Source: an uncultured Verrucomicrobiales bacterium
Lineage (GTDB): Bacteria; Pseudomonadota; Alphaproteobacteria; Paracaedibacterales; UBA11393
NCBI GenBank assembly: GCA_964613645.1
Contig: CAZTIE010000002.1
Coordinates: 1-25,029 of the forward strand
Direction: 5' to 3'
DNA length: 25,029 nt
Part shown: one piece after another, positions 15,501-16,044 of the stretch
How the letters are laid out: each line of letters starts with the position of its first letter
How positions within the stretch are numbered: position 1 is the first letter of the stretch
Notes under the pieces: generated by a model
Told to the model about the DNA's origin: nothing
Database searches by the model: none
Seen by the model: the letters and a program-made list of their open reading frames with translations, nothing else
Position numbers and translations under genes: made by a program

Positions 15501-15533
15501 GTTTGTTTGCATGACAAATGCAATAAAATAGGG
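15269..15533 (+). repeat. Diverged direct repeat, copy 2 (copy 1 at 144-428)
   Basis: Same-strand alignment with 144-428, covering the 3' half of the CDS and the downstream non-coding tail. Confidence 0.9.
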
Positions 15534-15543
15534 TTCTGTCGCG
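15532..15543 (+). mobile_element. Outer 12 bp of an IS6-family terminal inverted repeat (intron 5' exon)
   Basis: GGTTCTGTCGCG directly before the intron GTGTG. Homology with 144-428 ends here, as expected at an insertion boundary. Confidence 0.75.
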
Positions 15544-16044
15544 GTGTGTCATAGAGCAATAGTAGGAGGTTTTGGTGACCTAAAGAACAAGAGCATAAGC
15601 TCTTGAAGAGATGGGGGTAGACTCTTCGTAGTCGGCGATTCAAGCGTAGGCTTCAAACCACCTCAAGCAGCTGCTTTTAAGAGAAGTGCTTGTGAGCGTT
15701 GAGAAAAAGTCAGGAATTAGCTTGGCAGGTATGGACCAGAAAGACGCATAAAAATGAAGGACTGATGATGCATGGTAAGGCCATTTATGCATCAAAACTG
15801 CAGGCGTGCAACATCTGCAGGGAGAATCCACAGGGAGCTTGATTTACTGTGTGTGAGTGGTGTCCGGTGTAAAGGTCACGTGAGTCTTGTTTTTGGCTTT
15901 TCAAGGGAACTATGGGAACCAGTCGCCTTGATATAAGGGGAGAAATTCAAATGGCTAAATCCATAAGAATGAGAGTACCGATGCCAAGAAACAGAGACGG
16001 AGCAGTTTGTATGAGCGATGAAAGCACTGTAATGATTCTGGAGC
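15544..16044 (+). mobile_element. Group II intron fragment, domains I-III (bacterial class D / IIB, RmInt1-like), truncated by IS66 before the RT ORF
   Basis: 5' GTGTG. The sequence is collinear with my recollection of RmInt1 (GATGGGGG, CAAACC, GCTGC, GTGAGCGT, GGAAC...GGAACC, AAGGGGAGAA, GAGAGTACCGATGC, GTATGAGCG, CTGTAATG..GGAGC). The EBS1 stem-loop is CTGCAG-GCG-TGCAACA-T-CTGCAG at 15798-15820. Confidence 0.9.

Follow-up and report, generated by a model that had tools for sequence, protein, structure and literature searches.

The 501-nt segment at 15544-16044 of the window (the whole stretch of DNA analyzed, 25,029 nt of contig C2 from a 1.55-Mb assembly in 233 contigs; coordinates are window positions unless another contig or locus is named) is very probably a defunct 5′ fragment of a class D group II intron, the natural site of which is the repeat of an IS6 subgroup, between bases 12 and 13 of GG(A/T)TCTGTCGCA^TCTGTT (the caret marks the insertion point). 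The intron copies of the window and their immediate neighbors are:

15532-15543, forward strand: 12-mer GGTTCTGTCGCG, the 5′ exon of the forward copy and the outermost 12 bp of the IS6 inverted repeat
15544-16044, forward strand: group II intron 5′ fragment of 501 nt, with a GTGTG start at 15544 and an Rfam match
15613-15730, forward strand: domain I core, Rfam RF01999 (group-II-D1D4-2), 77.5 bits, E 2.9e-14
1-131, reverse strand: second intron 5′ fragment, with GTGTG at 131 and 93% identity to 15544-15670, ending at the contig edge
132-143 (read 143-132), reverse strand: 12-mer GGTTCTGTCGCA, an IS6 repeat tip and the 5′ exon of the second copy
16045-16485, reverse strand: end of an IS66-family element, with transposase C-terminal pieces at 16115-16336 and 16297-16485 (ORFs; PF13817, E 7e-11)

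The original prediction of two intron copies that follow the same 12-mer and differ in the sequence beyond it is exact for 15532-15543 (forward) and 143-132 (reverse), and the forward copy has the Rfam match; in its 12-mer, GGTTCTGTCGCG, the exon base at -1 is changed from A to G. Both copies are dead fragments, i.e., non-functional remnants amid IS fragments. Over its 501 nt, the forward copy shows 91.5% identity to the full-length intron of the metagenomic loci L028 and L030; it includes domain I up to just before the ORF region and, lacking an RT ORF and domains V and VI, is non-functional. Intron homology stops at 16044, and GTAAGCG begins at 16045, the GTAA of which we take to be the IS66 terminus. 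With the PF13817 pieces lying behind this sequence, the intron is therefore truncated by an IS66-type element, and the same end sequence (from 16045) recurs on three contigs (C125, C40 and C138). The region 3′ of the intron (16045-17071) is an IS graveyard, in which the IS66-type pieces are followed by a C-terminal piece of IstB (IS21) at 16731-16961 (reverse strand) and a short ORF at 16925-17071 (reverse strand) that resembles, by eye only, the N-terminus of an IS5-type transposase.

Full-length relatives are found in metagenomes, in which a scan with the first 19 intron bases identifies L028, and look-ups of the exact protein identify L029 and L030. The full-length intron is ~1.89 kb and encodes a 416-aa protein (P0001) with Pfam matches to RVT_1 and GIIM only and none to a nuclease/endonuclease domain. 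RF01999 scores 104-112 bits in L030 and L032, and RF00029 (domain V/VI) scores 56-58 bits in the full-length relatives (threshold 40), with the domain V/VI matches terminating exactly at the inferred 3′ splice site; the RT/maturase ORF and domain V/VI end anticipated for complete copies are both found in these relatives. The intron protein is ~58% identical to those of the Sinorhizobium introns RmInt1 and RmInt2 over 97-98% of its length, and domain I is alignable throughout. RmInt1 and RmInt2 are assigned to class D in the literature, and the intron is, as judged by these alignments, a bacterial class D, RmInt1/RmInt2-like, IIB-type, endonuclease-less mobile group II intron. An IIC-type, terminator-targeting behavior is rejected, given the conservation of 12 exon bases and the presence of EBS2. 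In three variants of the intron (77-78% protein identity), full-length copies lie at the identical position; the full-length L031, L032 and L065 have the same 12-mer upstream as the window copies, and the intron of L033 is preceded by GGGATGTGTTGCA.

Head-to-tail tandem copies are noted in two independent data sets, L028 (reverse strand, 100-135) and L065 (~1895-1960), in which the intron 3′ end CTACTCACC abuts the 5′ start GTGTGCCATAG; the second copy of L065 is degenerate. Misassembly of the L028 junction is less likely given the L065 case and the published tandems of RmInt2, and real head-to-tail copies are the more likely explanation for both loci.

The 12-mer corresponds, by comparison with intact elements, to the outermost 12 bp of the IS6-subgroup repeat, with the intron inserted between repeat bases 12 and 13, because intron-free copies have matching ends and are longer than the occupied IS bodies by exactly 2 x 12 bp. 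A look-up of transposases that share 76% and 85% identity with the L030 enzyme leads to ~20 intron-free IS6 copies in metagenomes, which have GG(A/T)TCTGTCGCATCTGTT at both ends (left GGATCTGTCGCATCTGTT, right GGTTCTGTCGCATCTGTT, or close variants) and flanks that diverge immediately outside the GG. The inverted repeat of the subgroup is 18 bp in length, and the window 12-mer forms the tip of the intact IS6 repeats in L043-L062. These elements have the features of the IS6 family, including a single DDE transposase (PF13610), a length of 837 or 852 bp and 18-bp repeats beginning with GG; no obvious target duplication is apparent in the flanks of L047.

Occupied elements are exemplified by L030 (ENA assembly) and L032 (JGI sample), which come from different samples and have intron proteins 77% identical and transposases 71% identical. 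L030 has domain V/VI matches at 23-98 (forward) and 927-1002 (reverse), and the 828 bp between them encode an intact 237-aa IS6-family transposase (PF13610, 160.7 bits); GGCTGTGTTGCA is the 5′ exon of the complete intron copy to the right of the IS. In L032, the domain V/VI matches at 2102-2177 (forward) and 2991-3066 (reverse) flank 813 bp in which the IS6 transposase gene is intact; GGTTCTGTCGCA forms the 5′ exon, and the 3′ exons begin with TCTGTT on both sides. In both loci, the intron 3′ ends point inward on the two sides of the IS, at the same position in the left and right repeats, and the addition of 24 bp to the occupied bodies (828 to 852 bp and 813 to 837 bp) gives the lengths of the intact L053 and L047. 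The predicted homing into an IS6 terminal repeat, at two sites per IS that are each split after base 12, is supported by these loci, in which both ends are occupied. Of the prediction for the 3′ exon, the return to IS6 interior with an intact transposase gene stands, and the start does not: the exon begins with TCTG instead of AAG/AGTTTT, since the target is the subgroup repeat GG(A/T)TCTGTCGCATCTGTT. Occupied ends are seen only in this IS6 subgroup and its close variants (TGTTGCA tips, L030 and L033).

An IS6 relic with an empty site is also present in the window:

3535-4119, reverse strand: IS6-family transposase relic, 194-aa ORF, PF13610 (87.7 bits), 76% identical to the L028 transposase
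4162-4194, reverse strand: decayed left repeat of the IS6 relic, with the uninterrupted homing site TGTCGCA^TCTG at 4177-4187

Uninterrupted TGTC(G/A)CA^TCTG is found at the IS6 relics of the window (4177-4187), C185 and C233, the last of which is an exact 18-mer.

Several relatives are noted in other surroundings. In L031 (4331-4722), a standard IS6 5′ exon precedes the intron, behind which an IS256-family (Transposase_mut) gene begins after only ~21 nt of IS6 interior; thus, the IS6 copy probably has an IS256-like element inserted in it. In L035 (1582-1900), an IS21-type element (istA/istB) has at its end repeated CCAGATGGCGG..AAAAGT.TACCAC motifs, beside which a related intron with a 72% identical protein terminates. 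This may be another IS-end target; the contig is without the 5′ exon. In L066-L068, a relative (74% protein identity) resides in a conserved ~40-nt segment, GGGTCGGGTTGCATAA^CCCCCAAAAATGCACAATCTGAGAT, with variable sequence on either side, and the target may be a small repeat.

Pairing between the intron and its exon was analyzed by an alignment of domain I that includes the window copy, four full-length relatives, RmInt1 (ISRm2011-2, L041) and RmInt2 (ISRm17, L040). The pairing elements of the window copy are:

15779-15783, forward strand: EBS2 GGCCA, in the loop of a hairpin at 15766-15794, which folds, and homologous to EBS2 in RmInt1 and to the published one in RmInt2
15798-15820, forward strand: EBS1 hairpin, which folds, with the stem CTGCAG (15798-15803) / CTGCAG (15815-15820) and the TGCAACA loop at 15807-15813

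The stem, the TGCAACA loop and the GGCC at 15779-15782 are all present as first described, and the structural alignment with RmInt1 and RmInt2 agrees with the placement of EBS1 at 15807-15813 and extends the candidate EBS2 to 15779-15783. The exon is organized as IBS2 (approximately -13 to -9), one linker base (-8) and IBS1 (-7 to -1). The EBS1 pairings are:

RmInt1: EBS1 TTTCGTC, exon GATGAGA, 7/7 with two G-U
RmInt2: EBS1 TATGGAT, exon GTCCATA, 7/7 with one G-U
L031, L032 and L065: EBS1 TGCGACA, exon TGTCGCA, 7/7 Watson-Crick
L030 and L033: EBS1 TGCGACA, exon TGTTGCA, 7/7 with one G-U
L069 (other target): EBS1 TTGCAAG, exon CTTGCAA, 7/7
Window: EBS1 TGCAACA, exon TGTCGCG, 6/7 with one G-U

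EBS1 covaries with the exon in the relatives that have other targets (L069, RmInt1 and RmInt2). The suggestion that TGCAACA is tuned to the canonical TGTTGCA is not upheld, as all full-length copies carry TGCGACA, one transition away, and the window EBS1 is most simply a TGCGACA that has decayed by one G-to-A change. EBS2 pairing is complete in L032 (AACCA with TGGTT, 5/5) and is accompanied by a compensatory change at -10 in L030 (AGCCA with CGGCT); the window GGCCA forms two G-U and two G-C pairs and one mismatch with GGGTT, and L033 forms 3/5 pairs only. The alignment recovers the published RmInt2 EBS2, GAACU, including its natural mismatch (unpaired) at -11. A 6-mer, GGAACC, at intron position 370 is rejected as EBS2 on positional grounds, and a search for EBS3 by covariation with the +1 base among RmInt1, RmInt2 and this intron reveals no convincing column.

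The source genome has eight intron 5′ ends (the forward and reverse copies of C2, and those of C49, C134, C51, C38, C29 and C64), all of which are directly preceded by (G/C/A)GTTCTGTC(G/A)(C/T)(A/G), i.e., GGTTCTGTCGCA-like 12-mers. A ninth 5′ junction with the same type of 12-mer is provided by a congener (L015), and the outer flanks beyond the 12-mer are mutually unrelated at all nine junctions. The recurrence of the 12-mer upstream of the intron is far beyond chance; the target of other copies is likewise the one foreseen, the same 12-mer preceding those of the source genome, L015, L031, L032 and L065. Scanning of GTDB genomes with the first 19 intron bases yields, besides the congener fragment, only a 24-nt match that looks unrelated, in a Spirochaetaceae MAG. 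This match (L016, 3736-3759) and the metagenomic L024 and L026 are exact matches of 19-24 nt to the intron start that lack the 12-mer and further intron homology.

Decay of the intron is extensive in this genome. The other copies end after 20, 45, 64 or ~235 nt, or at contig edges, as on C51 and C38, and none is intact; no intact RT gene is found in the source assembly, which has only a degenerate RVT fragment (C64) and a GIIM fragment (C220). Intron 3′ ends occur on C91 and C49, with the domain V/VI of C91 scoring only 36.3 bits. No IS6 sequence is detected behind either 3′ end, neither is followed by a transposase, and their 3′ exons share little with the IS6 repeat beyond the T at +1. With no intron copy of the source genome still joined 3′ to recognizable IS6 sequence, this link is lost, and the case for the target rests on empty sites and on relatives with 83-91% RNA sequence identity. 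An ORF-less mini-intron of ~300 nt is noted on C49 (9508-9830, equivalent to L020 903-1225), with an IS6 tip at its flank; it consists of the first 233 nt joined to the 3′ half of domain V and domain VI and is without the EBS loops. The congener copy is truncated by a repeat end (GGCTTTGTTCGGCAGGGTAT..., from L015 6356) that similarly truncates an IS6 transposase relic on C185 (~2560 onward) and represents another abundant mobile element.

The junctions could instead have arisen by repeated transposition of an IS6 element that carries the intron in its end, with the 12-bp tip still acting as a transposase substrate, and not by repeated retrohoming. The source genome does have more junctions of 12-mer and intron (eight, with differing outer flanks) than IS6 relics (only three), and the flanks change exactly at the IS tip, a pattern that IS transposition would also produce. 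Such an origin is nevertheless improbable, as repeat positions 13-18 are replaced by unrelated intron bases, introns are found at both ends of the occupied IS (as homing into two equivalent sites predicts), perfect EBS/IBS pairing and covariation point to an RNA matched to its site, and three variants of the intron are full-length at the same position. The two processes are compatible and not exclusive, and the ratio of eight to three leaves room for some contribution of hitch-hiking to the junctions left by homing.

Any retrohoming IIB intron leaves ~12-13 conserved exon bases, and the 3′ exons of the source genome are not recognizably IS6; hence, the 12-mer might be a mere IBS2/IBS1 footprint at scattered ectopic sites, with a coincidental likeness to IS6 in this genome. 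The likelihood of this is very small, since the 12-mer is the tip of intact IS6 repeats, the empty sites continue with TCTG, including those of the source genome (C233, C185 and 4177-4187 of the window), conservation ends at the IS tip, and intact IS copies with the intron exist. Smaller still is the likelihood that assembly has fused two abundant repeats into a chimeric intron-IS6-intron layout. The contigs are indeed short metagenome assemblies with ends inside repeats, and in L028 a 3′ end of the intron abuts a 5′ end; however, the same architecture is recovered from two differing samples, assemblers and sequence variants, the lengths agree with intact IS copies to the base, and a Logan contig has the same 5′ exon. 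Homing of the intron into the IS6-subgroup repeat remains the preferred explanation.

Homing would be initiated by the spliced intron RNA and its RT/maturase, which are predicted to locate the DNA by base pairing; the pairing potential is apparent here, and the step itself is modeled on class D introns. EBS2 (loop at 15779-15783) would pair with exon bases -13 to -9 and EBS1 (loop at 15807-15813) with -7 to -1, and the RNA would then reverse-splice into the target DNA strand, as proposed for class D. Because the protein is without an endonuclease domain, a nascent strand of the replication fork is expected to prime cDNA synthesis, which has been shown for RmInt1. Since an inverted repeat is targeted, every IS has the site once per strand; based on class D introns, this inverted pair would guarantee one site on the lagging-strand template. 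Insertion would separate the 12-bp tip from the remaining repeat, and the IS is probably immobilized, as the repeat acts as DNA and would not be repaired by RNA splicing. In the source genome, the IS6 and intron populations have decayed, with the forward copy cut, EBS1 changed from G to A, the exon -1 base mutated and no intact RT assembled. A more speculative and rather doubtful proposal is that the intron lineage is a dedicated IS6-end parasite that alters the fate of the IS, either as a silencer that splits a DNA site or as a composite rider with a working 12-bp tip, and that may also accept canonical TGTTGCA ends (IS26/IS257 type) by a G-U pair at -4. Composite riding would explain the excess of 12-mer and intron junctions over IS6 relics in the source genome.

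Homing to an IS repeat, once considered perhaps novel, is a known phenomenon: RmInt2 retrohomes experimentally into both inverted repeats of ISRm17 (Martinez-Rodriguez et al. 2014, RNA Biol, PMC4615759), and the same study discusses the advantages put forward in the original prediction and reports head-to-tail tandem insertions. ISRm17 is an ISNCY/ISDol1 element and not IS6; thus, the intron described here adds a different IS family. Similarly to RmInt2, the intron encodes an endonuclease-less RT/maturase (proteins ~58% identical), has the same RNA architecture with EBS2 and EBS1 in homologous loops, is targeted to the terminal inverted repeat of an IS, each copy of which has one site per strand, and forms head-to-tail tandems (here L028 and L065). 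By contrast, the target here is an IS6 element (DDE_Tnp_IS240, ~840 bp) with another target sequence, where RmInt2 uses ISRm17, and the intron resides in uncultured Alphaproteobacteria of low GC content and in other organisms known from metagenomes. RmInt1 of S. meliloti (ISRm2011-2, IS630 family) is of the same class, shares the EBS1/EBS2/linker layout and also has an IS as its home. According to the literature, RmInt1 is located inside ISRm2011-2, the spread of which it blocks; the intron described here differs in that it resides in a non-coding, cis-acting DNA site. The targeted IS resembles IS26, IS257/IS431, IS1216 and IS240 in its transposase domain, ~0.8-kb length, single ORF and short repeats that start with GG...CTGT.GCA, and it differs from IS26/IS257 in the subgroup repeat (GG(A/T)TCTGTCGCATCTGTT versus ...TGTTGCAAA) and in the +1 base (T versus A). 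No report of a group II intron in the repeats of IS6, IS26 or IS257 was found in the literature, the coverage of which is incomplete and makes this weak evidence of absence.

For annotation, the finding accounts for the recurring 12-mer and for a set of contig breaks in the repeat-rich, decaying source genome. IS-terminal-repeat homing, documented for one pair of a Sinorhizobium intron and IS, recurs in another IS family, in uncultured bacteria and in several environments. Because of this recurrence in a second IS family and in uncultured bacteria, class D introns without an endonuclease seem to use homing to IS repeats as a general strategy, in which each IS provides two targets, one of which is always on the lagging-strand template. 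The IS6 family includes IS26, IS257 and IS1216; thus, a natural RNA-guided element directed to an IS6 end offers a useful model of the ways in which transposons are restrained or exploited by retroelements.
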